Source: Candidatus Rhodoferax mariagerensis
GTDB lineage: Bacteria > Pseudomonadota > Gammaproteobacteria > Burkholderiales > Burkholderiaceae_C
Length of the DNA stretch: 64,000 nt
Assembly: GCA_016719055.1 (NCBI GenBank)
Contig: JADKAW010000018.1
Span: 2,015-66,014, forward strand
Direction: 5' to 3'
Made by a program: the position numbers and the translations under genes. Shown piece by piece: positions 14,104 to 38,591 of the stretch. Each line of letters begins with the position of its first letter. The first letter of the stretch is position 1. The notes beneath the pieces were generated by a model. It did no database searches, was not told the origin of the DNA, and saw only the letters and a program-made list of their open reading frames with translations.

Positions 14104-14112
14104 AATCCCCAC

Positions 14113-16093: not shown

Positions 16094-16118
16094 GCGCCAG
16101 CGTCGCGCTCAGGTTTTC
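16091..16118 (+). terminator. Possible terminator after slt
   Basis: TGAGCGC-cagcgtc-GCGCTCA followed by GGTTTTC. The T tract is short. Confidence 0.35.
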
Positions 16119-16147
16119 AAGCCTTACTTTTTTACGCTTGACTCACC

Positions 16148-16831: not shown

Positions 16832-16832
16832 C

Positions 16833-20268: not shown

Positions 20269-20373
20269 GCGCCCGGCACGCACGACGGCACCCGGGCCGA
20301 CAAAGCGGTTGTCGTGAGATACTGAATTGCACCCAATGTGCTTGTGTTCTGGCCTGTTGTACTGCGTTAAACC

Positions 20374-22959: not shown

Positions 22960-23089
22960 CGTGCGCGGTTCAATCTGTCAAAAAATATAAGCAGAATTTG
23001 ACTTTGCTCAAAGTCTGATGTGATTCGATGCTGACAATGTTATGGCACCTATCCGTTTGCTTGAATGCTTATTACGTCTGGAGATTTTT

Positions 23090-24031
23090 ATGAAAATTAC
23101 CGAAGTTCACCGGAGTCTCGCGCTGATCTTTGGCAGTTGCCTGCTGGCTACTTCGTTGTCTGCGCAGGCCGCACCCAAGGGTGCCAAAGCGATTTTTGAC
23201 AGCGGCGGCGGCGGCGGCACGATTGGTATGTCGGTCAACGCTGCACGCCCGGCCACACCGGTCGCAAATGCCGAGCCAGTGTCCCAGAGGTATGTGGGTA
23301 TTTCTTACCAGATCATGGCCATTGAAAACGATGGCCAGATGCGGCCAGTGTCAAAAAACCGCACCTTTCGTTCAGGTGAGCGCGTCAGAATTCTGGCCAG
23401 CACCAATCGGCCAGGCTACTTGACAGTGGCCAACATTGGCACCTCGGGCCGGATGACCGTGCTGTTTAGCGAGTATGTGGACGCCTACAGGATGACCCAG
23501 ATTCCGCAAAACAGCAATTTGCGTTTTGATGGCAATCCTGGTACAGAAAACGTGTTGATCATGTTGTCCAACGAGCCCAACCCGATCGCGGGGCCTTCCA
23601 ACAGTGTGGTGTCGGCACCCCCTGCGCCTACTTATCCGACGCAGGTATCAACACCGGCCCCAGCGCCGGCCTACCCCGCACCAGTATCGGCACCCTATGT
23701 GCCGCCGCCGCCCATGCCGGGCACCGATACCGCAACAGCGCCAGCCTACCCAGCGCTGCCACCTGAGCAGGCCAGTGCCAGTTTGGTGGCCTCGCTCGAC
23801 GGTGCCAAGAGTCTCAAAGCCAAAGGGTCCAAAGATCTGATGGTGGAAGACAGCATGGAAAACTCCTACACGGTCGTGTCTCCCAGACAAGGAGGCTACA
23901 AGGCCGTCAGCGGTGGTGCCAAAGATTTGATCATGGAGTCAACAGAAGGTACCAATTACGGCATGGTGCCGGTGGCCGCTGTTTCTGGGGGCGGCATCCT
24001 GACGCTAGAAATCAAACTTAAACATCGCTAA
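23090..24031 (+). CDS. Secreted DUF4384-like protein with Pro-rich linker and C-terminal G-[AS]-K-D-L motifs
   Basis: Signal peptide MKITEVHRSLALIFGSCLLATSLSAQA. FRSGERVRILASTNRPGYLTVANIGTSGRMTVLF...GTENVLIMLS resembles DUF4384. A PAPxYP-rich linker follows. GGAG lies before the ATG at 23090. Confidence 0.7.
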   Translation: MKITEVHRSLALIFGSCLLATSLSAQAAPKGAKAIFDSGGGGGTIGMSVNAARPATPVANAEPVSQRYVGISYQIMAIENDGQMRPVSKNRTFRSGERVRILASTNRPGYLTVANIGTSGRMTVLFSEYVDAYRMTQIPQNSNLRFDGNPGTENVLIMLSNEPNPIAGPSNSVVSAPPAPTYPTQVSTPAPAPAYPAPVSAPYVPPPPMPGTDTATAPAYPALPPEQASASLVASLDGAKSLKAKGSKDLMVEDSMENSYTVVSPRQGGYKAVSGGAKDLIMESTEGTNYGMVPVAAVSGGGILTLEIKLKHR

Positions 24032-24034
24032 CCG

Positions 24035-24059
24035 ACAACGGCTATCTGCCGTTGTTTTG
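24035..24059 (+). terminator. Possible terminator after the DUF4384-like gene
   Basis: ACAACGGC-tatct-GCCGTTGT followed by TTT. Confidence 0.45.
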
Positions 24060-24117
24060 CAATGTCGTAGACGTTAATTAATATTGACGGGCTATTGTGG
24101 CCCGGGAGATGCAACAA

Positions 24118-24822
24118 ATGAAAAGACCTTATACGCGCTCGGTAGCCAAAGTCATGCTGCCCGTGTTCTTGACTGCCTGTGCAGCGCTACCGCCGCCAGG
24201 AACCCGCTTGACTGACCAAGAGCGCGCTGAGGCCCAAAAAACCTGCGTGAATCAGTACGTTGTAGGGGGTGCCATCGGCGGAGCACTTCTGGGCATGCTG
24301 GTCTCAAGCAGCAAAGACCGTACGCAGGGTGCGGTGGTCGGTGCTATTGCCGGCGGCGCTCTGGCACACAGTTATGCCTGGGGCAAGTGCTTGTCGTATT
24401 ACTCTGACACCAACAGTTTCCCGGTTGCCAACGCCCAGCAGACGGCTGCGGCAGTGGGCTACACGGCCAGTCGGGGTAACGAAGTGCGTATCCAGAGTTT
24501 TGTCGTGACTCCAAGCCAGATTGCACCTGGGGGCAATCTCAAGCTCAATGGTTCTTACTATGTGATGGCGCCTGATGGCCAGCAGCAGGTCAAGGTGATT
24601 GAAACCCGCACCGTGTACTACCAGGATCCCAAAGACAACTCATGGAAAGAACTGGGTTCAGAAACAACGCCCATCACTGCGGCACTTGGCAGTCGTCGGT
24701 CCGAAGGACAAACCGGCATGCCGGTCGAGGTGGCCGAGGGGCGCTACCGCGTGACGTTCAAGGTCAGTGCGCTGGGTCGCGAAGATCAAGCCTCGCAGGA
24801 AGTCGTGATCAAAAAGTCTTGA
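24118..24822 (+). CDS. Lipoprotein with glycine-zipper segment and beta-rich C-terminal domain
   Basis: Lipobox VFLTAC and a glycine zipper GGAIGGALLGMLV...GAVVGAIAGGALA (Rick_17kDa/SlyB-like). The start could also be 24097 or 24109. Confidence 0.65.
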   Translation: MKRPYTRSVAKVMLPVFLTACAALPPPGTRLTDQERAEAQKTCVNQYVVGGAIGGALLGMLVSSSKDRTQGAVVGAIAGGALAHSYAWGKCLSYYSDTNSFPVANAQQTAAAVGYTASRGNEVRIQSFVVTPSQIAPGGNLKLNGSYYVMAPDGQQQVKVIETRTVYYQDPKDNSWKELGSETTPITAALGSRRSEGQTGMPVEVAEGRYRVTFKVSALGREDQASQEVVIKKS

Positions 24823-24828
24823 CCAACC

Positions 24829-26100
24829 ATGAACTGCCGTCGTAACAAGCCGATTTTCCTGTTATTTGCGTTGTTGTTGGCGCTGGCGTTGCCCGTGTTC
24901 GGGCAGCAAGCGTCGCCAACACCAGTGACGCAGCAGCATTTGCAGATCATCAATTCGGCTTTTGCCCGCAACGGGGTGGTCAACGGGCGGGTCGAGTTTG
25001 ATGCCTACGGCAGGGTCGAGCTCAAAGGTGATTATGTCGACGAGCCAGAGGTTGACCGGGCTTTTTCGCTGGCGCAAGTAGTGGTGGGCGTCAAGTGGGT
25101 GTCGCCAGTCACACCAGAAAACATCCAGGTCAAAACTTGGGAAAAGAAGCTTGGCAACCTCTTTGCCCGTGCCAATGTGTTGCAGCCATCGGTGCGTGGA
25201 GACGGCATGCCCGGGCCAATCCGCAACCGTTATGCTGTGGTCGTTGGGGTAGGGCGCTTCAAGTATGGCATTCAGCCGCTTGAATATGCTGCCCGAGATG
25301 CGCTGGCTTTTTATCAGTTTCTGACCGATCCGCGCCGGGGGCAGTTCCGCCCCGACAATGTTGTTTTCCTGACCGACGAAAACGCCACGCGCTCCAATGT
25401 TGCCGTTGCGCTTGACAAGCTGCGTCAACTGGCAGGCGAAGATGATCTGGTGACGGTGTATATCAGCAGTCACGGCAGCCCGCCAGACAAAAAAGGGGCG
25501 GTCAATGTGGTGACGTATGACACCGAGACCAAACCCCGCGAGCGCATCTGGTACACCTCGGTGACCGAAGATATGCTCAAAGAATTTGTCGAAGGTGTCA
25601 AAGCCAAGCGCTTGGTCATGGTGCTCGACACTTGCTACAGCAATGGTGCCTACCGGGCTGTCCCGGGCTTTTTGCCGCCTGGTGGCAAATCACTTGGCGC
25701 GGGTGACAGCGAAGGTTACGGCATCAGCCAGGAGTCCAGCCGACGCATGCTCGGTGGTGCCAAGGACCTGGTGCTGGAAGACGACACGCGCCGCGCCACA
25801 ACTGCCAAATCAGTCAATATTGGATCGACCGAGCCCTATGGGAAAGTGCTCATTGGCGCCAGTGGCTCAGGCGAGCAGTCGTGGGAGTCGGAAAAGCTGC
25901 GAAACAGCATTTTCACCTACTACTTTGTCGATGGACTCAACCGCTACAGTGGTTCGGTGCAACAAGCATTCAACTATGCCAAACCTCGTGTTGCCAGCCG
26001 CGTCAAAGAAGAAAAAGGTCACGACATTGACCAGAACCCGCAAGCCATGGCGACCATGCCCAACTGGGACATGCGCTTGACGCAAGCGGCCACACGTTAA
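24829..26100 (+). CDS. Secreted BON-domain caspase-like protease (peptidase C14 / orthocaspase)
   Basis: Signal peptide MNCRRNKPIFLLFALLLALALPVFG. The N-terminus is BON-like (GRVELKGDYVDEPEVDRAFSLAQVVVGVKWV). The C14 core RYAVVVGVGRFKY...YISSHGS (His codon 25471) and VLDTCYSNGA (Cys codon 25633) is present. The gene starts 6 bp after the preceding gene. Confidence 0.8.
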   Translation: MNCRRNKPIFLLFALLLALALPVFGQQASPTPVTQQHLQIINSAFARNGVVNGRVEFDAYGRVELKGDYVDEPEVDRAFSLAQVVVGVKWVSPVTPENIQVKTWEKKLGNLFARANVLQPSVRGDGMPGPIRNRYAVVVGVGRFKYGIQPLEYAARDALAFYQFLTDPRRGQFRPDNVVFLTDENATRSNVAVALDKLRQLAGEDDLVTVYISSHGSPPDKKGAVNVVTYDTETKPRERIWYTSVTEDMLKEFVEGVKAKRLVMVLDTCYSNGAYRAVPGFLPPGGKSLGAGDSEGYGISQESSRRMLGGAKDLVLEDDTRRATTAKSVNIGSTEPYGKVLIGASGSGEQSWESEKLRNSIFTYYFVDGLNRYSGSVQQAFNYAKPRVASRVKEEKGHDIDQNPQAMATMPNWDMRLTQAATR

Positions 26101-26120
26101 CTCCCCACTGAGGACTGTTT

Positions 26121-26786
26121 ATGCACACCACGAAAAACGCATCCCTATGGCTTAGCACTTTGGCCAGTGCTGTTGTTCTGCTGTCAGGCTGCGACAAAAT
26201 TCCAGGATTGGGCAAACCCGCAGAAGCACCCGCACCCGTGGCAGCACCGGTTGCACCGCCACCTGTTGCGGACCCTGCCCCGGCAACCATTGCCGTAGCA
26301 CCTCCTACAGTTGCAACCTCACCTGCACCCGCGGCTGGCCCCAGTCTGGAAGTACAGAGCCACATCAAGCAAGCATTTGCTTACATCAGTATGGCAAAAA
26401 ATGCGCAAGGCTCAATCCGCGAAGAGAACATTGATAACGCGCTCAAAGAGTTTACGGTTGCGATTCAAAAAGATCCCAACTACGCCGAAGCCTATTCCAA
26501 CCGGGCTGCCACCTACATGCAGCAGAAAAAATTCAACAAGGCCGACGATGATTTGCGGCGCGCCAAAGAGTTGTCACCAGACAGTCCATCCGTGCGTTAC
26601 AACTACGCCAGCTTGCATTCGCTCAAAGGGAACGTCGACCTGGCGCTGGATGAGGTCGATGCCGCCTTGACCAAAGGCTTTTCGGACTATGACGCGCTGC
26701 GCCTTGATCCGGACCTGAATAATGTGCGAAAACACCCAGAATTTCGAAAAATTCTTGAAAAACACAAGGTGTTTATCGTCAAGTAA
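26121..26786 (+). CDS. TPR-repeat lipoprotein
   Basis: Lipobox LLSGC, an Ala/Pro-rich linker, then TPR units (DPNYAEAYSNRAATYMQQKKFNKADDDLRRAKELSPD...). Confidence 0.75.
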   Translation: MHTTKNASLWLSTLASAVVLLSGCDKIPGLGKPAEAPAPVAAPVAPPPVADPAPATIAVAPPTVATSPAPAAGPSLEVQSHIKQAFAYISMAKNAQGSIREENIDNALKEFTVAIQKDPNYAEAYSNRAATYMQQKKFNKADDDLRRAKELSPDSPSVRYNYASLHSLKGNVDLALDEVDAALTKGFSDYDALRLDPDLNNVRKHPEFRKILEKHKVFIVK

Positions 26787-26830
26787 AACGCGTTTGGAAG
26801 TTGATGGAGCAACCTTGAAAGTTTGATGTC

Positions 26831-27220
26831 ATGCGCCAATTCGTCCGTTCCCTGGTCATGGTGCTGGTCGCGTGTGTAGGTTCGGACTTATGGGCACAGC
26901 AGCCTGACCCCACTTCCACGCGCCGGTTCGCAGATTGCCTGTGCCGTTGCTCCAGCGGCTGGGCAGCCCATATTGGCGTGTTTTATGACCCGGATCACAA
27001 GCATGCCGCCACTTGCGAAAGTGCTGGCCCGTGTATTGGCGGCATTGGAGCGTTTGGCTGCTCCAGCAGGCACTATCTGAGTGCGACGACCGAATGCAGT
27101 CGCAGTTGCTGGGAGCAGGCGTTTGCCGGGCAGGCTTTCAACAACGGCACCATCACCGAGTTTTCTGACACGCTCAATCAGCGCTATCGACAGCGCCAAG
27201 GATCAACGGGCGGCAAATAG
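26831..27220 (+). CDS. Small secreted 8-cysteine protein (stand-alone copy of a module also found in the giant protein)
   Basis: 129 aa with a signal peptide. CLCRCSSGWAAHIGVFYDP...CESAGPCIGGIGAFGCSSRH...TECSRSCWE is about 66 percent identical (counted by eye) to residues encoded at 31707-31899. Confidence 0.65.
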   Translation: MRQFVRSLVMVLVACVGSDLWAQQPDPTSTRRFADCLCRCSSGWAAHIGVFYDPDHKHAATCESAGPCIGGIGAFGCSSRHYLSATTECSRSCWEQAFAGQAFNNGTITEFSDTLNQRYRQRQGSTGGK

Positions 27221-27308
27221 GCGCAGGCTCGCGCCGCAATGACGGCGTGCCAACAGGGCTAGGTTCATTGGACGTTCGCTATCAACTGGCGCAAACAAGA
27301 GGCACCCC

Positions 27309-30300
27309 ATGAAACTATTTGGCTTTCGCACCCTTGCACAAGCGTTGGTCAGCCTCTGGCTGGTCGTTGCAGCCGGTCTGTTGCCAGCCTTCGGCGCATC
27401 CAATCAGGAATTCCCATACCCGCTGGGCGAGCATATTCTGGCCAGCATCCTGCGTCATGAAAAGCACACGGATGCGTCACTGCTGCTGCTCACGCAGAAC
27501 CTCAAATGGTATGAACAGGAAAAGGGCAAACTGCCAGGCCCGATACAAGATGAAATTCAACACCTGAGAATCAATTTGGCGGGCGAGGTAGCCCAATCTT
27601 CGGCGCGCCAACTCGGCGAAGCCGAGGCGGCTTTTGCTGCCACTGGCTCCTGGAAGCCAGGGCGTGACATGGACATTGTTTACATGGGCAAAAATGGCGA
27701 CGCAGCAGCCCAGTCGATTGCCCGCAACTATGAAGCCCGCAGTGCCAATATTCTGGCCAGCGCCGAAATCGACCCCATTCTGAAAAGTTATAGCGGTGAT
27801 GTCCCGCGCAGCCTCACCGCCAACAGCTTGGCCGTCTGTACCACCGAGCTTCCCAACTTTGGCTATGAAGACCTGAACAAGGCCTTTAACCAGGCCAAGC
27901 AGGCGCTCGCGCGCGGCGAATCAAAAGACGAGATTATGGCCACGCTGCGCCGTGACATCCAGCAAGCCATGGCCAACAACATGAACGGCCATTTTGCAGC
28001 GCAGGCCAACCCGGACTACTACGCCGGAGCCACCGGGCAGAAATGGTTTCAAGACACTTACCTAGACAAACCGGACAAAATGCGCACCTTCATGCAGAAC
28101 GAGAGTGGCAACTGGGTGCTCAAGCCGGGCGGCATCCAGGCGGTGCCTGCCGACATCGTTGAGCGTCTTGGTTTTGGCTCCATGGGTGGCTCGGGCGTCA
28201 AGTTTTCCAAGATCGCGTCGGACTACGCACTCTTCTTCTCGCACATGCATGGTGGTCCCTCTGACAACGCCAAATATGTGCTGCGGGTCTGGAAAGACAT
28301 GGGGTTAAATGCCATTCAGGATTTGAGTGCGGCTGAAGTCAAGATGCTGGCAGCGGCCAAGAAGATTGACTTGAAGCCATCGCAAGCGTCGCAAGAACTG
28401 GCCAAAATAGGGCTCAGTGTGGATGACTTCAATGCGAACATGTCGCGCATTCTGTTGAACTGGACCGAGTCGCAGTTGGTCAAAGACATGGACCTGCTGG
28501 TCACTGAACTGGGGTCGAGTTCAGCCAAAACGGTGGACGAACTCGACAAACTGCTGCGCCAGGCCAAAACCACCATGAACCTGAATGAACTGGTGGCGGG
28601 TCTGGATAAGCTCAAGGTGGCACCCCCGGAGGTGCGGGCACGCCTGATTGATCGGCTGAAAGCCAAGTTTGGCAGCACGCCAGCGGGCGTTGCCGCCATC
28701 AACTTTGTCATGCGCAATCTGGGCCTGCTGGGCGACTCCAGCGGTGAGCTGACGCGCCGTTTGGTCATCATCCTGAAAGACATGGGGAAAATCCAGCCGC
28801 AAGATGCTGACGCCTTGCTGCGCGGCGAACCTGCTTCTGACGCGGCCCAGGCGCAGATGAAACGGGCACGGCAGGAGATTGCTGCGCTCAGTTCCGGTGG
28901 CATGGTGGAATTTGACGACGCATTGGATGTGGACCGACTGATGGAGGACTGGCGCAAAGCCAAGCCCGATGCCTTGCTGCAGTCACCCAGCGACGAACTG
29001 AAGAAAACCCTGGAAGAATTGCGCGGCTCGGTCGATGAGGCCAGGCTCAAAGAACTTGGTTGGGCCGACGATGAGATTGCCGCCCACCGGCGTGTGCTGG
29101 ACCGCATGCGCAAGGATGCCATGCGCAAGCTGGGTCAAAAACTCGAACCTCGCCTGGTCAAAGGTGGGGTAAGCCTGCGCAACTTCCAGCAAAAAATGCG
29201 CGAATTGATCTTTAGCCCCGCCTACACAAAATTTGGCGATGCCAGCTCATCCGTAGGAGTGTTTGATGCCGTGGTGGGGGTCGCAGCCGGCTTGTACTCC
29301 ACTTATGACATTCTCAACAACCAGCGCTTGTCGCCTGCCGACGAAGCGCAGGCGCTTGAAAACGCCTGGGTCACGGCTATTCCGATCGTGGGCGACTTTG
29401 CTCAGGGCTTGATCACCGGCGGTCAGGCTTTTTACGAGGGCGACAAGGGCAAGGCACTGGAGGCCGGTCTGTGGATCACCATCGGCACCATGGGCTGTGT
29501 ACCAGGTGGGCAGTTGCCGGCCGTTATTCTTGGCATCGGGCTGGCGACCAAACCCATTGTGGCTGGATCCTACGATGCCCGTCAGGCACAGCATCTGGTG
29601 CAGGCCTGGATCGAGTCAGGCAAATGGAGCAAGGACAAGCCTCGCAAGCTGCTGGGTTTGTATGACCGAGCCTCGGGCGATCCCGAGATCTATCTGGACA
29701 TCAAATACTCTGAACTACTGACTGACAAGGGCAAACTTCCCTATAAATCTACCCGCTTGGGTGACGTCAGTATCAACCAGTCGATTCGTGACTACGCCGA
29801 AAAATATGTGACGCCGCAGTATCCGGCCATCAAGTCGATCCGCGAAGCCTTGCTCAGCGTGTACCCCGATTTCAATGACAAGGAGTGGAGTGACGAATTC
29901 TCGGCGAGTCTCAAGATTGATGCGCGTGGAGGCAAGGGTAGCAAGATCCTGTTTCGTTCTTACTTCCAGTTGCATGGCAAGGCGATGGTGCAAACCATCA
30001 ACCATCTCAAACAATGGGCTGAAGACGAGATGCGCGCGCTCAAGGATTACGACTCAGAAGCTGCGCGCCTGCGCGACGAACTCCGCACACTTGAGCGTGC
30101 CCTGCAAACCGGCAATCTGGTCAGCAATGCCGATGCTTCAGTCGAGGCCTACAGCAAGATCGTTGCCAACTTGTGGGAACAAGAGAGCCTGCCGTTGGCC
30201 AGGCTGCGGATTTACGAGCACTACGTCAATACCTACAGAACGATTGAAGGCAAACTGCGCCGGGTGATGGACATTCTGAAAGAAGCCAGCAACCCCTTCC

Positions 30301-33300
30301 TGCCGCCGGGCTGGCACCTGACCGGTTACCCCGAACTGGACCGAGACCGGGTCGACAAGCTCAGCGCCAGCATGGAAAACGGTCGCAAGGGTGTGATTGA
30401 GGACATTGAAAACACTCTGAAAGAGTTTGGCATTCGCAGCACGCGTTATGACAAAAACAACGCTTGCCACAAGGCGGCGTTTGATGCGCTGGCGCCTTTG
30501 CGCTACAAATATGCCTTCATTGAATTTCAGGCGCTGTATTTCAAGGCGTTGGCAGAAGGTAGTTCCACCTGGTCATCGGCTTTTGAGACTGCCAAGGCAC
30601 GTTATCAGGAGTCGCGCGCGCAGGTGCTGCGCAACATCGGCAGCAATCTGCAGTCCCACCCGCATGTCATGATGCTGATGGAGCAAAAAGCCATGACCGA
30701 TGCGTTCATGAGCTTTGTGGTGGCTGTGCCCTACGCGCTGGCATCGACTGAAGTTGGCGTGTACCAGTCTGCCGCACGTGACTACGAGTTGCGCCAGTAC
30801 AGCGCGGGGCTGGACTACCAGCTCGCCAAGGGCCGCAGTGGCAAAGTTGGGCGTGACCTGGCAGACTGCCTGCAGGCGCAGTTGCAGATTGACCTGCAGC
30901 TGTCCAACCCGCAACCCGAAGCAGGTACCGACGTCACTGCTAGTTATCGCCTTGTCAAGGGCGAAACCCACGCGGATGTGGTTTGGGACTGGAAGCTCGA
31001 AGGTGCGCTGGTGAAAAAGACGGCCGAACCAGGTAGCTTGGTGTTTACCGTGAATGGACCCGGCAAGCTGACGGTTTTTTTGCGCGACTGGTACAACCCC
31101 AACACAAGCAAATATGGCAAGGTTCTGGCCCAAATCAGTGCCGATATTCAGCCTGGCCTGCCGTCAGATGTGAAGGTGTTTGTCAGCGGGCCGACCCAAA
31201 CCGAATTGGGCAGTAGCGTAAGTTATTTCGCCTCCATCGACGCCAAGCCGGGTGTGGCCCAGGCGATGCTGGCCAATGCCCACATTGAATGGCGGCTCAA
31301 TGGCGACGCCGGCGCAGGCAGCGACAGCAGTTTCCGCTTTTCACCGATACGCACGGGCAGCTACAGCGTGGTCGCTACCGCCTACGTGATGGAACGTGGC
31401 AAAAAGCGGGTCATCGCCAGTTCTCGTCCTGTTACTTTGCAAGTGCGTGACGGCATGGACAAAGACAAAGACGGTGCTGCCAACCCGGACAAGGGCAAAC
31501 GCGATGGTGAACCGGACAAGCCCAAAGAAGCCCCGTCCTGTAGCTACACCTATTCTGAATGGGGCGAGTGCAGCCGCGCCACCAAGAAACAAACCCGCAG
31601 CGTGACCGTTACCCAGCCCGCGGGCTGCGTGGAAAAAGCCAAGCCGGTGCTGGAGCAAGGCTGCACCCCGCCACCGAGCGAAGAGGACAAGAAAAACAGC
31701 TACCTCAACTGCCTGTGTCGTTGCTCCAGTGGCTGGGCCGGACACATCGGTGTCTGGTATGACCCCGAGCAAAAGACGGTGCCGGAGTGCAAGAGCTCCG
31801 GCCCCTGTATTGGCGGTATTGGCGCCTTTGGCTGCTCCAGCCGGCATTTTTTCAACTCGTCAACCGAATGTGCCAAAGGCTGCTGGGAAGGCGCTTACGG
31901 TAAGGGATCGTTTGACGCTGAAAAAGCCAACAAAATGGCCAAAGAAGAGAACAAGAAGTACAAGAAGCCGCCAACGGTGAAGATCAACGCTTCCAAAAAT
32001 CCGGCAGACTTTGGCGACATCGTGAGCCTGACGGCGCAGGCCAGCGAAGGCAGTGGCGGTTACAAGTGGAATTGGGGCGGCTGTGCGCAGGACGCCAAGG
32101 ACAACACGGCCAAGGTGCTTAACTCGCGCAGTTGCCAGGCTTGTCAGGCCTCGGTCACGGTGACCGACTCTGATGGTGATTCGGCGTCTGACAACCTGAC
32201 GATCCAGTGCACCGCGCTCAAGGTCAAGCTCACCAAAGAAAGCCCCAAAGAGAGCCGGCTGCCAGTGGGCAGCTCAGCCAAATTCCTGGCTGAGGTGATG
32301 TCAGGCACGCAGGCGGCGTCGGGCAGCTTCTCGTACATCTGGGAGCGCAATCCGGACGCCGTTTTTGGCGATCCCAAAAACCCGGCTTATGAAACCAAGG
32401 GCGGTGCGCAGTCACGCAACACCGCCAGCTTTGGCAAGCTGGGCACGATTCCGATCTGGGTCTCGGTGCTCAAAGAGGTCGATGGCCGCAAGATGACGAT
32501 TGGCGAGTCCGAGCAGATCATGATGGAAGTCGTCAAGCCCAAGCTCACCCTCAGCGCCGAACCGAAAGACGCCCTGGTTGGCCAGGAGATCAAGATCACC
32601 GTGCAAGAAGAACCCAAGATGAGCGACGATTTGTTGTCGTTCTGGTGGGAAATCAGTGGTGAGGCCAACAACCCAGGGCCAGTCCCCAATGTGCCCAACA
32701 GCCGCGCTTATTCGTTCAAACCCAAGTCTGACAAACCAGTGACTGTCACTGTGCATGCCAAGGCCAAAGACGGCGGTGATGAACTGGGCGTTGAAAAAAT
32801 CACCTTACAAGCCAAAAAGCCATCGATAACCGTCACCGGGCCGAAGATTGCCGGACCGGCGCCCATGATCTGGAAAGAGGGTGTCGGGCTGGTGTCCGTG
32901 GGCCAGCAGGTTGTTGAAGACCAGCGGGTTGAGTTTGCCGTGACCGTGTCGCCCGAATTGAAACAGGAGCTGCGCTACCAATGGAGCGTGAAGCCCGAAG
33001 GCTGTAGCCTGAGTGCGCCATCATCCAAAGAAACCGGCATCACCTGCGCCAAGACCGGCGGCTATGCGCTCACGGTCATCGTGCGCAACAGCGAAGGCGC
33101 CGAACTCGGCAGCGGCGAGGGCAGCCTGAACGTCACGGTGTCGCAATCCGACATCAAAAAAGGCAAGCAAAAAGACGAAGCCGCCAAAAAACTGGAGCAA
33201 GCCCGAGCGTTGTGGAGTCAGGGCAAGATTGACGAGGCACTGGCACTGTTGGCAACCGTGGCCAGCACCGAGCCCCAATTGGCCGCTCCGGTGAGCAATC

Positions 33301-35729
33301 AGTTTGGACAGGGCCTGAAGAAACTGGGCAGCGACGCCCTGCAGGCGCTGGACCCCACCACGGCCGTGAAGCGCCTGGAGCAAGCCGTGAAACTGCTGCC
33401 AGGTGATGCCGAAATTCGACAAAAACTGCAGCAGGCCCAACAGATGGTGCAGTTGCAAGCGCAGGCACTGCAGTTTCTTGAGGCTGCCAAGGCCAATCTG
33501 GCACGCGGTGTGCCAGCCGACGTGAAAGGGCTGACAGAACTGATCGCCGAGCTGAAAAAGCGTGAAGCTGCCTTTGCCCCGGCCGACCCGCGCCGCCCAC
33601 CGTTTGCCGCCCTAGCCGCCAGCGCGCAGCAAAAGCTGGTGCAGGCACAGCAACAAGCCGCTGCCTGTGAAGCCAAGTGGACCGAGGGCAAAGCCTTGTA
33701 TGACGCGAAAAAAATGCCCGAAGCTCTGGCCAAATTCAAGGAAAACCTGATCTGCGAACCAGGTCGACCCGAACGCCAAGCCTATGTCGGGCAGTTAGAG
33801 CAGGCCATCAAGGCGCAACAAGCCCAGCAAGCCGCTGCCAAACGTCTGCGCGACGAGGGTGCCGCCCTGCAGGCGCAAAACAAGCTGCCAGAGGCACTGG
33901 CCAAATACCGCGAAAGCCTCAAGCTGCTACCAGACCCAGCACTGGCCCAGCACATACAGACCCTGGAGCGCCAGCTACAAGAAGCGCAGCAAAAGGCGGC
34001 CCATGCACAACAGTTGCGTGCTGAAGGCGAGGCCTTGCAACGCCAAAACCACATTCCCGAAGCCATTGCCAAGTACCGTGAAAGTCTGAAGCTCGTGCCT
34101 GATGCCAAGCTGGAACAGCACATTCAGTCCCTGGAGCGCCAGGTACAGCAACAGCAGCAAACTGCTGCACAGGCGCAGAAGCTGCGGGCTGAGGGTGAGG
34201 CCCTGCAACGCCAAAACCACATTCCAGAAGCCATTGCCAAGTACCGCGAAAGCCTCAAACTCGTGCCCGACGCCAAACTTGAGCAGCACATTCAGACCCT
34301 GGAGCACCAGGTGCAACAACAGCAGCAAACTGCAGCCCAAGCGCAAAAGCTGCGGGCTGAGGGTGAGGCATTGCAACGCCAAAACCGCATTCCAGAGGCA
34401 ATTGCCAAGTACCGTGAAAGTCTGAAACTGGTTCCCGATGCCAAGCTGGAGCAACATATTCAAACCTTGGAACAACAAGCGCAACAGCAACAGCAAAACA
34501 CGGCGCAGGCACAAAAACTGCGGGCTGAAGGCGAGGCACTGCAACGACAAAACCGCATTCCGGAAGCGATTGCCAAATACCGCCAAAGCTTGAGTCTGGT
34601 ACCTGATCGCTCGCTGGAGCAGCATATTCAGACCCTTGAGCAGCAAACGCAACAGCAGCAACAAAACATGGCGCAGGCGCAAAGGCTGCGTGCTGAAGGC
34701 GAGGCGTTGCAACGTCAAAACCGCATTCCTGAGGCAATTGCCAAATACCGCCAAAGCCTGAGCCTGGTGCCCGATCGTGCGCTGGAGCAGCACATTCAGA
34801 CGCTGGAACGGATACTGCAGACACCAGCGCCCGTGCCCGCGGTGCCACCCATTGACCATGGCGGGCGCTCATACACCTCGATGGAGCCGGCGCCAGCGCC
34901 CACGCCTCAGGTCAAGCCAGGTACGTTGGTCGATAGCGGCAATGTTTCAGGCGTTTACAACATGCCAACCCGCCCGACCGTGATCCGGCTGGCACAAGAA
35001 ATCGTTCTGACCAGTATCACCAACTACCACTGGAACGACGGCCGTGGCACGTCCCGCACTGGGAGCATCGCCCTGCGCGATGCCAGCGGACGCAGCTATG
35101 GCCCATGGCCAACCAGCGGACGCCCGGGCCAGGGGGGGGTGCCCAATGCCTACTGGACAGCCACGCCCAACGTCAGACTGCCAGCAGGAGACTATGTCGT
35201 GACTGATTCCGACCCCGCCACCTGGTCGCAAAACAGCGGTTCGGACGGCGCGGGGCACACCCGCTTTGACGGCTATCCGACCTCACCCACGAGTGGTGGT
35301 CGGGTGGCCACGGTGCTGCCGACATCACCGCATGCATCGCCGGTGCAGCCCACACCCCAACCGCCGCCGCCAAGTCAGAAACCAGCCAACTTTGATGGCA
35401 GTTATGTAGGTCAATTTGGCGGCGATGGCGGTGGCCCGATTCGTTTTACCGTGCGTGGCGCCAATGTGCAAGGTCAGGTCAACGGCAACATTGACGGCGA
35501 CAAGGTGACAGCCACCTTGTCGGGCACCGTCAGCGCGGCTGGGCAGATCACCATGCAAGTCAAGGGGACGGTGCAGTGGCGACTGTCGTCGCAGTCGCAA
35601 TACAGCGAAACCCCGTTCAACGGCCAGTTGACCGGCACCATTCAGGGCAGCCACGTCAGTGGGCGATGGACTGCCGTCAGCATGGACCAGGACGACAAAC
35701 GCTCTGGCACCTGGACCGCCAGCCGTTAG
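27309..35729 (+). CDS. Giant (2806 aa) secreted multidomain protein: helical N-region, Gly-rich hydrophobic segments, Ig-like domains, Cys modules, TPR-like tandem repeats, beta-rich C-terminus
   Basis: One uninterrupted ORF. AAGAGG lies before the ATG. Signal peptide MKLFGFRTLAQALVSLWLVVAAGLLPAFGAS. The domain calls come from sequence patterns only; I recognise no named family for the first ~1190 aa. Confidence 0.85.
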   Translation: MKLFGFRTLAQALVSLWLVVAAGLLPAFGASNQEFPYPLGEHILASILRHEKHTDASLLLLTQNLKWYEQEKGKLPGPIQDEIQHLRINLAGEVAQSSARQLGEAEAAFAATGSWKPGRDMDIVYMGKNGDAAAQSIARNYEARSANILASAEIDPILKSYSGDVPRSLTANSLAVCTTELPNFGYEDLNKAFNQAKQALARGESKDEIMATLRRDIQQAMANNMNGHFAAQANPDYYAGATGQKWFQDTYLDKPDKMRTFMQNESGNWVLKPGGIQAVPADIVERLGFGSMGGSGVKFSKIASDYALFFSHMHGGPSDNAKYVLRVWKDMGLNAIQDLSAAEVKMLAAAKKIDLKPSQASQELAKIGLSVDDFNANMSRILLNWTESQLVKDMDLLVTELGSSSAKTVDELDKLLRQAKTTMNLNELVAGLDKLKVAPPEVRARLIDRLKAKFGSTPAGVAAINFVMRNLGLLGDSSGELTRRLVIILKDMGKIQPQDADALLRGEPASDAAQAQMKRARQEIAALSSGGMVEFDDALDVDRLMEDWRKAKPDALLQSPSDELKKTLEELRGSVDEARLKELGWADDEIAAHRRVLDRMRKDAMRKLGQKLEPRLVKGGVSLRNFQQKMRELIFSPAYTKFGDASSSVGVFDAVVGVAAGLYSTYDILNNQRLSPADEAQALENAWVTAIPIVGDFAQGLITGGQAFYEGDKGKALEAGLWITIGTMGCVPGGQLPAVILGIGLATKPIVAGSYDARQAQHLVQAWIESGKWSKDKPRKLLGLYDRASGDPEIYLDIKYSELLTDKGKLPYKSTRLGDVSINQSIRDYAEKYVTPQYPAIKSIREALLSVYPDFNDKEWSDEFSASLKIDARGGKGSKILFRSYFQLHGKAMVQTINHLKQWAEDEMRALKDYDSEAARLRDELRTLERALQTGNLVSNADASVEAYSKIVANLWEQESLPLARLRIYEHYVNTYRTIEGKLRRVMDILKEASNPFLPPGWHLTGYPELDRDRVDKLSASMENGRKGVIEDIENTLKEFGIRSTRYDKNNACHKAAFDALAPLRYKYAFIEFQALYFKALAEGSSTWSSAFETAKARYQESRAQVLRNIGSNLQSHPHVMMLMEQKAMTDAFMSFVVAVPYALASTEVGVYQSAARDYELRQYSAGLDYQLAKGRSGKVGRDLADCLQAQLQIDLQLSNPQPEAGTDVTASYRLVKGETHADVVWDWKLEGALVKKTAEPGSLVFTVNGPGKLTVFLRDWYNPNTSKYGKVLAQISADIQPGLPSDVKVFVSGPTQTELGSSVSYFASIDAKPGVAQAMLANAHIEWRLNGDAGAGSDSSFRFSPIRTGSYSVVATAYVMERGKKRVIASSRPVTLQVRDGMDKDKDGAANPDKGKRDGEPDKPKEAPSCSYTYSEWGECSRATKKQTRSVTVTQPAGCVEKAKPVLEQGCTPPPSEEDKKNSYLNCLCRCSSGWAGHIGVWYDPEQKTVPECKSSGPCIGGIGAFGCSSRHFFNSSTECAKGCWEGAYGKGSFDAEKANKMAKEENKKYKKPPTVKINASKNPADFGDIVSLTAQASEGSGGYKWNWGGCAQDAKDNTAKVLNSRSCQACQASVTVTDSDGDSASDNLTIQCTALKVKLTKESPKESRLPVGSSAKFLAEVMSGTQAASGSFSYIWERNPDAVFGDPKNPAYETKGGAQSRNTASFGKLGTIPIWVSVLKEVDGRKMTIGESEQIMMEVVKPKLTLSAEPKDALVGQEIKITVQEEPKMSDDLLSFWWEISGEANNPGPVPNVPNSRAYSFKPKSDKPVTVTVHAKAKDGGDELGVEKITLQAKKPSITVTGPKIAGPAPMIWKEGVGLVSVGQQVVEDQRVEFAVTVSPELKQELRYQWSVKPEGCSLSAPSSKETGITCAKTGGYALTVIVRNSEGAELGSGEGSLNVTVSQSDIKKGKQKDEAAKKLEQARALWSQGKIDEALALLATVASTEPQLAAPVSNQFGQGLKKLGSDALQALDPTTAVKRLEQAVKLLPGDAEIRQKLQQAQQMVQLQAQALQFLEAAKANLARGVPADVKGLTELIAELKKREAAFAPADPRRPPFAALAASAQQKLVQAQQQAAACEAKWTEGKALYDAKKMPEALAKFKENLICEPGRPERQAYVGQLEQAIKAQQAQQAAAKRLRDEGAALQAQNKLPEALAKYRESLKLLPDPALAQHIQTLERQLQEAQQKAAHAQQLRAEGEALQRQNHIPEAIAKYRESLKLVPDAKLEQHIQSLERQVQQQQQTAAQAQKLRAEGEALQRQNHIPEAIAKYRESLKLVPDAKLEQHIQTLEHQVQQQQQTAAQAQKLRAEGEALQRQNRIPEAIAKYRESLKLVPDAKLEQHIQTLEQQAQQQQQNTAQAQKLRAEGEALQRQNRIPEAIAKYRQSLSLVPDRSLEQHIQTLEQQTQQQQQNMAQAQRLRAEGEALQRQNRIPEAIAKYRQSLSLVPDRALEQHIQTLERILQTPAPVPAVPPIDHGGRSYTSMEPAPAPTPQVKPGTLVDSGNVSGVYNMPTRPTVIRLAQEIVLTSITNYHWNDGRGTSRTGSIALRDASGRSYGPWPTSGRPGQGGVPNAYWTATPNVRLPAGDYVVTDSDPATWSQNSGSDGAGHTRFDGYPTSPTSGGRVATVLPTSPHASPVQPTPQPPPPSQKPANFDGSYVGQFGGDGGGPIRFTVRGANVQGQVNGNIDGDKVTATLSGTVSAAGQITMQVKGTVQWRLSSQSQYSETPFNGQLTGTIQGSHVSGRWTAVSMDQDDKRSGTWTASR
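33828..34835 (+). repeat. Six tandem 168-bp (56-aa) coding repeats inside the giant gene
   Basis: Units start at 33828, 33996, 34164, 34332, 34500 and 34668. The consensus is AAQAQKLRAEGEALQRQN(H/R)IPEAIAKYRESLKLVPDAKLEQHIQTLE-Q-QQQQQ. Confidence 0.9.
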
Positions 35730-35756
35730 CACCGTCTTTGCCAGAACCGCAGTGGC

Positions 35757-36827
35757 TTAAGACAAGCGCAAACCGGTCTGCTCGTCAAACCAGTTGTTGT
35801 GGTTGCTGCTTACTGACAGGCCCACGTTGTCGCCCACCTTCACCTGTGTGCTTGGTGGCGTGCGCACGGTGATCAGACCAACACCGGTCTTGATCACCAC
35901 ATAGGTGTCAGCGCCGGTGGGTTCGACCAAGGTGACTTCACCGCGCCAGGTGGCGTCATCCGCCAGGTGGATGTGTTCCGGGCGCTGGCCCAGCGTGACT
36001 TTGCCTTGCACCGGGCAGGGCAGGGTAAGACTGCCATCGTCAAAAGAAAATAGGCCTCCAGCCCCCGTCCCGCTTGCGCTGCCAGCTATAAAGTTCATAG
36101 TTGGCGAGCCAATGAATCCGGCCACATAGGTGTTGGCTGGCAGGCGGTATATCTCGTCGGGCGTGCCAATTTGCTGCAGGATACCGTCTTTCATCACCGC
36201 AATGCGGCTGCCCAGCGTCATGGCCTCGATCTGGTCGTGCGTGACGTACACGCTGGTGATGCCACTGACCTGGTGCAGGCGCTTGATCTCGGCGCGCATC
36301 TCCACGCGCAACTTTGCATCGAGGTTGCTGAGCGGTTCGTCAAACAAAAACAGCTGCGGGTCGCGCGCCAGGGCACGCCCCATGGCGACACGCTGGCGCT
36401 GCCCGCCCGACAACTGCGCCGGGCGGCGGTCCAGCAGGTGCTCGATCTGCAGCATGGCCGCCACTTCGTGGATGCGTTTGTTGCGTACCTCCAGTGGCAC
36501 CTTGCGCATTTCCAGCGCAAAGCCAATGTTGTCAGCCACGCTCATGGTCGGGTACAGCGCGTAGCTCTGGAACACCATGGCAATGTCACGCTGCGCGGGC
36601 GCCACGCCAATCACGTTTTTGCCGGCAATCTTGAGTTCACCCTCGGTCGGGTCTTCGAGGCCGGCAATGATGTTGAGCAGAGTCGATTTGCCACAACCCG
36701 AGGGGCCGACCAGAATCAAAAATTCACCCGGGGCGACTAGGATGTCGATTTTTTTCAGGACTTCGACCGCCTTGTCGGCCTTGCCAAAAACCTTGCGGAT
36801 GCCTGCAATGTGAAGGGATGCTGCCAT
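35757..36827 (-). CDS. Sugar ABC transporter ATP-binding protein (MalK/UgpC-like)
   Basis: Walker A GPSGCGKST, signature LSGGQRQR, Walker B LFLFDEP, and a MalK-type C-terminal domain. Confidence 0.9.
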   Translation of the reverse strand: MAASLHIAGIRKVFGKADKAVEVLKKIDILVAPGEFLILVGPSGCGKSTLLNIIAGLEDPTEGELKIAGKNVIGVAPAQRDIAMVFQSYALYPTMSVADNIGFALEMRKVPLEVRNKRIHEVAAMLQIEHLLDRRPAQLSGGQRQRVAMGRALARDPQLFLFDEPLSNLDAKLRVEMRAEIKRLHQVSGITSVYVTHDQIEAMTLGSRIAVMKDGILQQIGTPDEIYRLPANTYVAGFIGSPTMNFIAGSASGTGAGGLFSFDDGSLTLPCPVQGKVTLGQRPEHIHLADDATWRGEVTLVEPTGADTYVVIKTGVGLITVRTPPSTQVKVGDNVGLSVSSNHNNWFDEQTGLRLS

Positions 36828-36839
36828 GATGTGTCCTTT

Positions 36840-37694
36840 TTATCCTTTGACCGCACCGGCAGTCAGACCTTTGACGAAATACTGCCCCGCCAGCACATAC
36901 ACCAGCATGGTGGGCAGACCGGCGATGATGGCTGCAGCCATGTCGACGTTGTAGTTTTTCACGCTGCTGGTGGTGTTGGCCATGTTGTTCAGCCCCACCG
37001 TGATGGGCTTGCTGTCGGCACCGCTAAAGGCCACGCCAAACAGAAAGTCGTTCCAGATGTTGGTGAACTGCCAGATCAGCGTCACCATCAGAATGGGTGT
37101 GCTCATCGGGATGACAATGCGGTAGAAAATGCGCCAGAAACCAGCACCATCCATGCGCGCTGCGTTCACCAACTCGCGTGGAATGGCGGTGTAGTAGTTT
37201 CTGAAAAACAGCGTGGTGCCGGCCATCCCCGCCAGGCAGTGCACCAGCACCAGTCCGGCAATCGAACTGCTCAAGCCCAGAAAACCCAGCACCTGGCTCA
37301 TCGGCAGCAGCACCACCTGAAACGGCATGAAAACACCAAACAGGATAAAGCCAAACAACAGGTCACTGCCCTTGAACTTCCACATGCTCAAGACGTAACC
37401 GTTGACGGCTCCCCAGGCGGTCGAAATCAGCACCGCGGGCACGGCCATCATCACCGAGTTCCAGAAATAGGGTTTGAGCCCCCGGCAGTCCACCCCGGTG
37501 CACGCGGTGGACCAGGCCAGCGTCCATGACTCAAAATTGAGCGAGGTCGGCAGGCTCAGCAGGTTGCCCGAGCGGATTTGCTCGGCGTCCTTGAAACTGG
37601 TGGCCAGCATCACATACAGCGGTGCCAGAAAGAAAAAGGCCGCAATCAGCAGCACGCCGTAGACGGCTGCGCGGGAAAGTGTTTTGGCGCTCAT
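36840..37694 (-). CDS. Carbohydrate ABC transporter permease
   Basis: 284 aa with six TM helices and the EAA-like loop ARMDGAGFWRIFYRIVIP. Confidence 0.85.
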   Translation of the reverse strand: MSAKTLSRAAVYGVLLIAAFFFLAPLYVMLATSFKDAEQIRSGNLLSLPTSLNFESWTLAWSTACTGVDCRGLKPYFWNSVMMAVPAVLISTAWGAVNGYVLSMWKFKGSDLLFGFILFGVFMPFQVVLLPMSQVLGFLGLSSSIAGLVLVHCLAGMAGTTLFFRNYYTAIPRELVNAARMDGAGFWRIFYRIVIPMSTPILMVTLIWQFTNIWNDFLFGVAFSGADSKPITVGLNNMANTTSSVKNYNVDMAAAIIAGLPTMLVYVLAGQYFVKGLTAGAVKG

Positions 37695-37712
37695 GGATGT
37701 GTTTCCTTGTGC

Positions 37713-38591
37713 TTAACGCTCGTGCGGTTTGGCGCGCAACTCGCTGTACAGATAGGGCACCACCAAAGACGCCACAAACGCCAGCATCATGGTGGCACTC
37801 GCGGCCCCCAGACCAATCTGGCCCCGGGTAAAGCTCATGGTGAACATGAAGGTGGCCGGCACGTCTGACGCATAGCCCGGCCCACCAGCGGTGAGTGCCA
37901 TCACCAGGTCGAACGCCTTGATCGACAAGTGCGACAACACCAGAATGGTTGAAAACACAACCGGCCGCAGCACCGGCAAGATGATGCGCCAGTAAATACG
38001 CGGTAGAGAAGCCCCGTCCATTTGCGCCGCCTTGATGATGCTGTCGTCAATGCCTCGCAAACCCGCCAGAAACAGCGCCATGGCAAACCCGGCAGACTGC
38101 CACACGCCGGCGATCACCACGCAATAGATGGCGGTATCACTTTGCACCAGCCAGTCAAAGCTGAAACTGGCCCAACCCAGGTCATGCATGAGTTTTTCAA
38201 GACCCAGGCTGGGGTTCAAAATCCATTTCCAGGCGGTGCCTGTGACGATGAACGACAAGGCCATGGGGTAGAGGTAAACCGTGCGCAAAAAGCCTTCGCC
38301 GCGAATTTTCTGGTCCAGAAAAATCGCCAGCAGCATGCCCAGCAGCATGGAGCCGCCGACATACAAGATGCTGAAAATCCCGAGGTTTTTCAACGCGATG
38401 TACCAGCGGTCCATCTCCCACAGGCGGACATATTGCTCCAGTCCGACAAATTCGTCGTAGTTGGGCAACATGCGTGAATTGGTGACGGAAAGCACCCCGT
38501 TCCAGATCATCAAGCCGTAGATGAACGCAAAGCCGAGGACAAAACCTGGGGCGATCACCAGCTTGGGTAACACGTTTTCAAAGGATTTCAT
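37713..38591 (-). CDS. Carbohydrate ABC transporter permease
   Basis: 292 aa with the EAA-like loop AQMDGASLPRIYWRIILP. Confidence 0.85.
   Translation of the reverse strand: MKSFENVLPKLVIAPGFVLGFAFIYGLMIWNGVLSVTNSRMLPNYDEFVGLEQYVRLWEMDRWYIALKNLGIFSILYVGGSMLLGMLLAIFLDQKIRGEGFLRTVYLYPMALSFIVTGTAWKWILNPSLGLEKLMHDLGWASFSFDWLVQSDTAIYCVVIAGVWQSAGFAMALFLAGLRGIDDSIIKAAQMDGASLPRIYWRIILPVLRPVVFSTILVLSHLSIKAFDLVMALTAGGPGYASDVPATFMFTMSFTRGQIGLGAASATMMLAFVASLVVPYLYSELRAKPHER

Follow-up and report, generated by a model that had tools for sequence, protein, structure and literature searches.

A giant exported protein of Candidatus Rhodoferax mariagerensis with a rare N-terminal module, a predicted binding half and an exported caspase-family protease encoded upstream

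A single open reading frame (ORF) of 8421 nt occupies positions 27309..35729 of the + strand in a 64,000-nucleotide stretch of the Candidatus Rhodoferax mariagerensis genome (contig JADKAW010000018.1, positions 2,015 to 66,014; the whole of this stretch is called the window below), and the 2,806 amino acids (aa) that it encodes raise the question of whether so large a gene is real and, if so, what its product is made of and what it might do. An earlier interpretation, made by eye from the letters and referred to here as the sequence-only reading, had seen in it an adhesin-like or toxin-like surface protein. We find that the gene is real and intact and that the protein is a mosaic: its two halves move through evolution independently of each other and are joined within a Lys/Asp-rich linker. 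Half 1 (aa 1-1385) belongs to a family that is very rare and unmatched by the libraries searched, whereas half 2 (aa 1411-2806) is predicted to be an array of binding-type modules. The gene is also the last of a same-strand cluster that encodes an exported caspase-family protease, a linkage that is facultative but recurrent. The sequence-only reading contained neither the mosaic, nor the position at the end of the caspase cluster, nor a free-standing copy of one module encoded upstream; the domain layout that it did propose holds in every part that could be tested.

The frame runs from ATG to stop with no internal stops, and the antisense ORFs across the gene are short shadows only. An identical protein is deposited at NCBI as MBK9441970.1, a 'tetratricopeptide repeat protein' from a 120,755-bp contig of a Comamonadaceae metagenome-assembled genome, so the host had rightly been guessed to be betaproteobacterial. 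A pattern scan of 185,579 genomes, one per species, recovered at least 21 related loci, and in all 21 the gene is single and uninterrupted, encodes 2,170-3,050 aa and keeps the segment order of the window protein. Two of the orthologue genomes are complete (NZ_CP175563 and OY762510), and the complete genomes include that of Syntrophus buswellii DM-2, whose gene (L005) matches the window protein segment by segment and collinearly except for the last C-terminal domain (aa 2661-2806). In two ENA assemblies (ERZ25039459 and ERZ25039487; L001 and L002) the homologues are fragmented into 2-3 consecutive ORFs with garbled tails, a fragmentation that is typical of the indel errors of long-read assemblies and inflates the count of 'short' family members.

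The rarity of half 1 emerges from both library and database searches. The N-terminal ~1,190 aa went unmatched when compared with Pfam, NCBIfam and PADLOC and, as sequence profiles, with PDB, and Foldseek returned no significant hit from PDB or BFVD, as the sequence-only reading had anticipated when it placed this region in no described family. A comparison with PDB sequences of aa 1-1400, of the profiles A2 (N-module), A3 (head) and A4 (core), and of the C-terminal domains gave nothing with E <0.1, and the best Foldseek match of the 1,200-aa model in PDB (E 0.018, TM-score 0.12) is not meaningful. Homologue clusters of the N-terminal 1,200 aa number only 8 among 5.8 billion proteins, and an exhaustive search of 1.84 billion representatives with a hidden Markov model (HMM; 9-sequence profile) returned only 92 proteins at E <= 1e-3; a metagenome scan for the family was based on a 5-sequence alignment, and a word-indexed search with the core profile recovered fragments only. 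The hosts of the 21 loci include Syntrophus (among them S. buswellii DM-2), Geobacter, Syntrophorhabdaceae, Desulfococcus and Desulfatitalea and, further, Sedimenticola selenatireducens, Chromatiaceae, Sedimentisphaerales and Nitrospirae/Thermodesulfovibrionales, so that the family is patchy across several distantly related lineages; S. buswellii DM-2 and S. selenatireducens are in culture. No relative was found in IMG/VR or PLSDB, and on these two collections a phage or plasmid origin was rejected.

Half 1 begins with a Sec signal peptide (aa 1-31, 27309..27401; like all features of the protein, on the + strand), identified by its hydrophobicity and by its equivalent in relatives and likely cleaved between AFG and AS. 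The segment aa 3-32 is the sole strongly hydrophobic one (KD 2.07, approximate insertion energy +1.4 kcal/mol) and the only one hydrophobic enough for the signal peptide previously proposed at aa 1-31, and the equivalent signal peptide of the relatives lies immediately ahead of a conserved 'DDLGEHIL'. A head domain (aa 36-335) and a Gly-rich core (aa 641-790), both described below, are separated by a helical linker region (aa 336-640, 28314..29228), and the core is followed by a long-helix bundle (aa 791-1190, 29679..30878). AlphaFold models aa 1-1200 as helical (pLDDT 68.9, pTM 0.39), with helices in the linker region, helices of up to 57 residues within aa 790-1200 (pLDDT 74-92) and low confidence at aa 637-757. 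The earlier description of aa 32-648 as helical and of no recognised family, and of aa 755-1190 as helical or coiled, is upheld by the models, and neither region matched a family in the libraries. Two Ig-like beta units (aa 1198-1385, 30900..31463), which had been recognised by eye as beta-rich, give weak matches to the Ig-like domains BiPBP_C and PKD_3 and end the N-module; they are common to the Syntrophus-type giants and absent from the type-2 proteins introduced below.

Profile searches indicate that the N-module is itself modular. One part, 'module A' (profile positions 1 to ~600), comprises the head and its helical linker region and occurs in other giants with heads 20-24% identical, whereas 'module B' (positions ~490/635 to 1190), the core together with the helix bundle, occurs in many further giants bearing other N-termini. 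In these giants Ig-like, CarboxypepD_reg or PKD arrays follow, together with TPR, VWA or PDZ domains, and none of their heads contains a Pfam domain. Across the family half 1 is thus constant and the C-terminal arrays vary (PKD/TPR, CarboxypepD_reg/VWA, PDZ).

Half 2 of the window protein opens with a TSR/pleiotrophin-like Cys motif (aa 1410-1453, 31536..31667). The WxxC...QTR motif noted by eye is indeed present, and its assignment is TSR-like at a sub-threshold level only, as the WxxC...TR stretch (aa 1410-1443) scores 22 bits against PTN_MK_C, below the cut-off of 25.3, and matches PDB pleiotrophin 8voi with E 0.17. The 8-Cys module that follows (aa 1454-1553, 31668..31967) has no Pfam family; it is present as proposed and is conserved, with 67-80% identity, in the related loci L003, L005, L018, L027, L028, L032, L033 and L037. 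For the ~four PKD/Ig-like units (aa 1556-1945, 31974..33143), the last (aa 1866-1944) exceeds the PKD threshold in a segment scan (29 bits vs a cut-off of 23.5), and the other three are recognised by eye or by weak matches. A degenerate TPR region and six 56-aa TPR repeats occupy aa 1946-2509 (33144..34835); the repeats, counted as six before, match TPR_2 in six stretches (88.7 bits vs 27, E 6.7e-26) that coincide with a 168-nt tandem repeat of 5.5 copies and 80% match at 33888-34807. Pro-rich linkers and two beta-rich C-terminal domains without a family match (aa 2510-2806, 34836..35729) complete the protein, which ends in ...TWTASR with no aromatic terminal residue; the first of these domains is 54-60% identical in L003, L005, L032 and L033. 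Family scans of the whole protein and of six segments against Pfam, NCBIfam and PADLOC gave only the TPR, PKD and weak TSR-like matches. Judged from these similarities, half 2 is an array of a TSR-like motif, an 8-Cys module, four PKD units, TPRs and a beta domain, all of a binding type.

The boundary between the halves is placed in the Lys/Asp-rich linker (aa 1386-1412, 31464..31544), whose composition (D 19%, K 19%) agrees with its earlier description and where similarity to three further giants sets in. The genes of L032 (Ideonella; 12071-17103) and of two metagenome contigs, L033 (12242-18778) and L037 (12203-16339), match the window giant only from ~aa 1401-1411 onward, with 67-80% identity in the TSR-like and 8-Cys modules, 42-73% in the PKD units, partial matches in the TPRs and, in L032 and L033 and not in L037, the shared first C-terminal beta domain. 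Their first ~690 aa are a different N-module, designated type 2, which has no Pfam family and which after the signal peptide carries '...QGSW-x17-22-SD[FH]DARLFI' and later a hydrophobic helical stretch and eight conserved Cys. The type-2 N-module was not detected by HMMs of the window-type N-module, and in hhalign comparisons of the two (Prob 0.3%) no homology between them was detected; the only alignment that hhalign produced for the two head types covers exactly a helix, a strand and the GSW element and is not significant (Prob 3%). The L032 gene is interrupted at 12868-12982, probably by a frameshift.

The two halves also differ in their nearest relatives. The window C-half and the upstream cassette are closest to Ideonella, a betaproteobacterium by name (63-80% identity), and for the N-module the nearest are those of Syntrophus, Geobacter and UBA1386 (57-62%). 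In L027 and L028 another head and a divergent core (40%) are combined with 8-Cys and PKD modules near those of the window (72% and 59%, respectively). As the identical fusion is present in Syntrophus, the mosaic is an evolutionary and not an assembly effect. Neither GC content nor GC content at third codon positions (GC3) marks the junction inside the gene. The GC3 of the cluster (0.55-0.70, with the PKD segment reaching 0.75) lies below that of the flanking histidine kinase and ABC genes (0.71-0.79; region 22000-35729), which is compatible with an older horizontal acquisition, and no mobile-element genes were found among the adjacent genes scanned (18832-38591).

Five same-strand genes precede the giant with gaps of 6-88 bp, and all five products carry a signal peptide or a lipobox. 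The first four make up the cassette: an exported DUF4384 protein (23042..24031; Pfam E 7.8e-11, signal peptide), which is 44-63% identical in L003, L005, L032 and L037; a glycine-zipper lipoprotein (24097..24822; Rick_17kDa_Anti, 33 bits; lipobox LTAC); an exported caspase-family protease, Peptidase_C14 (24829..26100; 56.5 bits vs a cut-off of 21.4, signal peptide); and a TPR lipoprotein (26121..26786; lipobox LSGC, Asp at +2). The catalytic pair of the caspase, His in SSHG and Cys in D[TA]CYS (DTCYS), is kept in the window, Syntrophus and Paraburkholderia, and the protease is the sole PADLOC match near the giant, to a generic caspase model; a BON domain that we had suspected by eye in its N-terminus was undetected by Pfam and was dropped. 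With >515 homologue clusters the caspase is far more widespread than the giant.

In two Syntrophus genomes (L003/L005) the cassette and the giant occur in the same order and on the same strand with 44-61% identity. The order DUF4384, glycine zipper, caspase, TPR is kept in every context examined, and in six of nine contexts, the window and the two Syntrophus genomes included, an exported protein of 1,378-2,995 aa comes next after the cassette. A survey of bacterial caspase homologues names no substrate (PMC3501461). Substrates of such homologues outside the cytoplasm appear not to have been established, and in the literature on DUF4384 and on a caspase/glycine-zipper/lipoprotein operon we found no description of the cluster. 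A distant and reordered cassette is present in Paraburkholderia sp. PREW-6R (L031, NZ_CP155075.1, 821863-839044, on a 1.09-Mb replicon), with the order glycine zipper, caspase, DUF4384, a 1,005-aa Tubulin_2 protein and a TPR protein; the PLSDB table annotates nothing in this region.

The fifth gene, orf129 (26831..27220), lies between the cassette TPR gene and the start of the giant and encodes a 129-aa protein with a signal peptide. This product is secreted and is a free-standing paralogue of the 8-Cys module inside the giant (48% identity, E 1e-37). A separate copy is absent from Syntrophus, Ideonella and the other loci, and orf129 may have been left over from the module swap, or its product may compete with the giant or partner it in soluble form. 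Directly upstream of the cluster and on the same strand (18832-22959) are genes for a histidine kinase whose sensor domain is 2CSK_N and for a PAS-GGDEF-EAL protein. GGDEF-EAL genes are also found near the cassette or the giant in L032, L015, L001 and L004, which may reflect a regulatory link to cyclic-di-GMP or a coincidence. The ABC genes near the giant encode a MalK-type sugar importer on the opposite strand.

Apart from the Syntrophus cassette, the only conserved neighbour of the giant family is found in a clade of Sedimenticola, Chromatiaceae and Desulfatitalea, where a ~335-aa multi-pass membrane protein is encoded directly downstream of the giant (L011, 17264-18271; also L009, L014, L015 and L020). 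It has no Pfam family and is absent from the window; it is a candidate immunity or partner protein and would fit a membrane immunity protein.

Within half 1, two segments bear on what the protein might do. The head domain (aa 36-335, 27414..28313) is predicted to be alpha/beta and enzyme-like from its AlphaFold model and its invariant residues. The model (aa 36-338, 13-sequence alignment; pLDDT 79.5, pTM 0.69) shows a long helix, a strand, a loop and a second strand, and the strand-loop-strand element, a predicted beta-hairpin, bears the motif G113-S114-x5-D120-x-D122 (ATGSWKPGRDMDIVY, 27645..27674). In the 13 heads, which are down to 20% identical, R87, G113, S114, D120, D122 and D155 are invariant, as are Y238, G240, G243, Q244, Y251, K322 and R326, a pattern such as would be expected of an active site binding metal and phosphate.

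The motif resembles that of the Pol-beta-type nucleotidyltransferases (DrrA/SidM, GlnE). Their hG[GS]...[DE]h[DE]h signature is present as G113-S114-x5-D120-M-D122-IVY with a spacing of 5-9 residues across the 13 heads, so that hG[GS]-x(5-9)-D-h-D-hhh lies on a predicted strand-turn-strand after a long helix, and a further Asp, a Lys and an Arg are invariant. The GS-to-DxD spacing of the head is, however, shorter than usual, and the third carboxylate, the acid of strand 3, is not invariant, whereas D155 is. No Pfam, PDB-sequence or significant Foldseek match (PDB, BFVD) was obtained for the head. Its best non-designed Foldseek match, the DrrA/SidM adenylyltransferase domain (3nku), is not significant (E 0.9-1.4, prob 0.14, TM-score 0.2-0.3). 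The sub-threshold Pfam matches, MTPAP-like at 0.06 and GlnE at 0.14, each occur in one of the 13 members, and that to GlnE probably arises from an unrelated Gly-rich stretch at aa 283-306, outside the motif. Alignment by hhalign to E. coli GlnE and to the CCA-adding enzyme gave Prob 0.5% and 0.2%. Since the Foldseek, Pfam and hhalign support is insignificant throughout, membership of the nucleotidyltransferases is unsupported and the head is called enzyme-like, and nucleotidyltransferase-like at the level of the motif only.

The second segment is the Gly/Ala-rich hydrophobic core (aa 641-790, 29229..29678), delimited by conservation and composition. No other part of the protein is as well conserved, with 64-75% identity to the closer relatives and 53-63% in the ~40%-identity clade vs ~30-63% for its neighbours in the N-module; the majority of invariant columns, often Gly, Pro, Asp or Trp, fall within it, and the segment can still be recognised in distant giants. 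AlphaFold assigns it a pLDDT <50. The Gly/Ala-rich hydrophobic stretches seen before at aa 649-754 are reflected in the composition of aa 641-760 (Gly 15%, Ala 15%, moderately hydrophobic). On a position-independent and therefore crude version of the biological hydrophobicity scale, the best internal 19-residue windows cost +6 to +9 kcal/mol vs +1.4 for the signal peptide, and no membrane helix is predicted. On this estimate an internal membrane anchor or an integral inner-membrane protein was rejected, as the internal segments are too polar for Sec stop-transfer. It follows that the giant should cross the inner membrane completely and that contact with a membrane, if any, would be made after export; such polarity would be anticipated in segments whose insertion takes place only once the protein has been secreted.

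Based on these features we tentatively propose, with low confidence overall, that the giant acts like an AB-type, membrane-active, toxin-like effector. Half 2 would bind a target surface, the Gly-rich core and helix bundle of half 1 would associate with or insert into a membrane after export, and the head would be an enzymatic payload whose substrate is probably phosphorylated or a nucleotide; in loci that link the two, the exported caspase might process or activate the giant. The rare and self-contained half 1, the active-site-like head, the conserved core, the mosaic, the cassette linkage and the membrane protein encoded downstream in five loci, possibly an immunity gene, are consistent with such an effector.

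Several observations weigh against it. Neither sequence nor fold comparison gave a match to a toxin, pore-former, translocation or adhesin family, no signal for type I, type V or type IX secretion (T1SS, T5SS, T9SS) and no adjacent secretion genes that would provide a route across the outer membrane were found, and the window contains no immunity gene. This leaves the periplasm as the default location, and chemistry that depends on nucleotides is unlikely there. TPR, PDZ and VWA domains are equally typical of periplasmic scaffolds and of toxins, and the hosts are free-living bacteria of sludge and sediment, many of them anaerobes. The cassette is absent from the giant loci other than the window and the two Syntrophus genomes and stands without a large partner in three of the nine contexts. 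The crudeness of the insertion energies and the hhalign (Prob <1%) and Foldseek (E ~1) results for the head count on the same side. The first description, an adhesin-like or toxin-like surface protein, remains plausible, but no match to a toxin or adhesin family, no outer-membrane route and no anchoring signal for the surface was found, the Sec signal peptide being the only targeting signal.

Large clostridial toxins of the TcdA/TcdB type are ~2,400-2,800 aa long and combine an N-terminal enzyme, a helical/hydrophobic region and a C-terminal repeat array with an internal clan-CD cysteine protease domain (CPD). The likeness of the giant to these and other single-chain AB toxins is one of size, order of parts and architecture only. 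A clan-CD cysteine protease is found in both, but as an internal CPD there and as a separate caspase (C14) gene here, one that is missing from most relatives. The giant matched the glucosyltransferase, CPD, pore-forming and CROP domains neither in sequence nor in fold, and Pfam, PDB profiles and Foldseek revealed no large clostridial toxin domain in it. In GT-A enzymes the DxD stands at the end of a strand, whereas in the giant it stands at the start, as in nucleotidyltransferases, and the hosts here are Gram-negative environmental bacteria with no known outer-membrane route for the giant. Polymorphic toxin systems resemble the giant in the exchange of alternative, unrelated modules on a constant part, with recombination at a linker, but the variable module of the giant is N-terminal and very large, a known trafficking domain (Rhs, TPS, PAAR, LXG) is lacking, and so is an immunity gene in the window.

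Almost as likely as a membrane-active effector is a surface or envelope adhesin or scaffold, in which half 1 would anchor the protein at the producer's envelope, perhaps together with the glycine-zipper and TPR lipoproteins, and half 2 would be a long stalk presenting binding domains in flocs, biofilms or syntrophic consortia, with neither catalysis nor translocation. The ~1,400 aa of Ig, PKD, TSR-like and TPR modules, the near-identical 56-aa repeats, which are typical of length-variable stalks, the CarboxypepD_reg, VWA and PDZ domains of relatives, the floc, sediment and syntrophic bacteria among the hosts and the lipoproteins encoded next door all agree with this proposal. A constant N-terminus and a variable C-terminus likewise fit an anchor with a variable tip, as in inverse autotransporters; with these (intimin/invasin) and with giant Bap/RTX adhesins the protein shares a conserved N-module, Ig-like arrays, a distal binding domain and tandem repeats that suggest a stalk. 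The N-module of the giant is, however, predicted to be helical rather than a beta-barrel, and of the known anchors and export signals (beta-barrel, LysM, lipobox, LPXTG sorting signal, RTX, T1SS) none was found. Moreover, an anchor would not be expected to need the invariant GS..DxD/D/K/R constellation, the same C-half is carried by non-homologous N-modules, and most giants are stand-alone genes without lipoprotein partners.

The established families of giant exported proteins do not include this one. It falls outside the RTX, haemagglutinin, Bap, autotransporter and large clostridial toxin families and the polymorphic toxin systems, because their defining features were looked for and were not found. 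The absence of RTX, haemagglutinin and Bap hallmarks from the protein was correctly noted by eye and is mirrored in the Pfam and NCBIfam searches, which gave no match to the GGxGxD repeats of RTX proteins, the adjoining ABC genes being those of the sugar importer; no Pfam match to filamentous haemagglutinin or two-partner secretion was found on the giant or its neighbours, and none to a barrel family of autotransporters or inverse autotransporters, the N-module being helical and the C-terminus that described above.

Next in order, and still nearly as likely as an effector, is that the giant belongs to an exported caspase proteolytic system, either as one of its components or as its substrate. 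The cassette would then encode a protease machine of the periplasm or outer membrane that is dedicated to the large downstream protein as its substrate, such as a matrix or envelope protein that cleavage brings to maturity, with half 1 as one of several interchangeable cargo domains. This would account for a cassette that outnumbers the giant and keeps its gene order and its catalytic pair, for the signal peptide or lipobox on all of its products, and for the large same-strand exported protein with a TSR, 8-Cys and PKD half that follows it in six of the nine contexts. The three cassettes without such a partner, the pairing of the Paraburkholderia variant with a tubulin-like protein instead and the general lack of a cassette next to giants of the window type (type 1) argue against it; in addition, no conserved Arg/Lys cleavage site was identified, and the linker, which the window type alone has in a Lys-rich form, is rich in Pro in L032, L033 and L037. 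The arrangement recalls the bacterial gasdermin/caspase-like pairs, in which a caspase-family protease is likewise encoded beside a protein that has a putative membrane-active segment, but gasdermin systems are cytoplasmic whereas here all products are exported, the giant has no gasdermin fold and the linkage is facultative.

The adhesin and caspase-substrate proposals are ranked so close to the effector because no toxin similarity, outer-membrane route or immunity gene in the window was found and because the domain types would suit periplasmic scaffolds just as well; the two proposals are not mutually exclusive. A more specific version of the effector, in which half 1 defines a new Sec-exported class of effector and translocator with a nucleotidyltransferase-like head and a glycine-rich helical insertion unit, seems unlikely at present; there the insertion unit would bring the head across a target membrane, the swappable TSR/8-Cys/PKD/TPR half would target the protein and cleavage by the exported caspase would arm it. 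An artefact of assembly or annotation that joined unrelated genes into one long ORF, the chimera that the sequence-only reading had allowed, is effectively refuted: the window does derive from a metagenome-assembled genome and several homologues in long-read assemblies are broken by frameshifts, but full-length collinear orthologues in 21 genomes, complete chromosomes among them, and the same fusion in Syntrophus show that the gene is no chimera.

Giant exported multidomain proteins are a kind already known. As far as the libraries and the literature searched can tell, what is new here is the N-module, its wholesale swapping and the link to an exported-caspase operon. A conserved module of ~1,190 aa with ~90 representatives in 1.84 billion proteins, scattered over patchy lineages, offers a clean target for structural and functional discovery, and the giants are assembled by swapping N-modules of ~700-1,400 aa onto a common binding half at the linker. 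Their tie to a widespread and unstudied operon for an exported caspase and two lipoproteins means that the locus supplies a concrete candidate substrate for an exported bacterial caspase, which, if true, would be the first physiological one. Should the giant prove to be an effector and translocator armed by that caspase, it would represent an extracellular counterpart of the caspase-activated membrane-attack logic of gasdermins.

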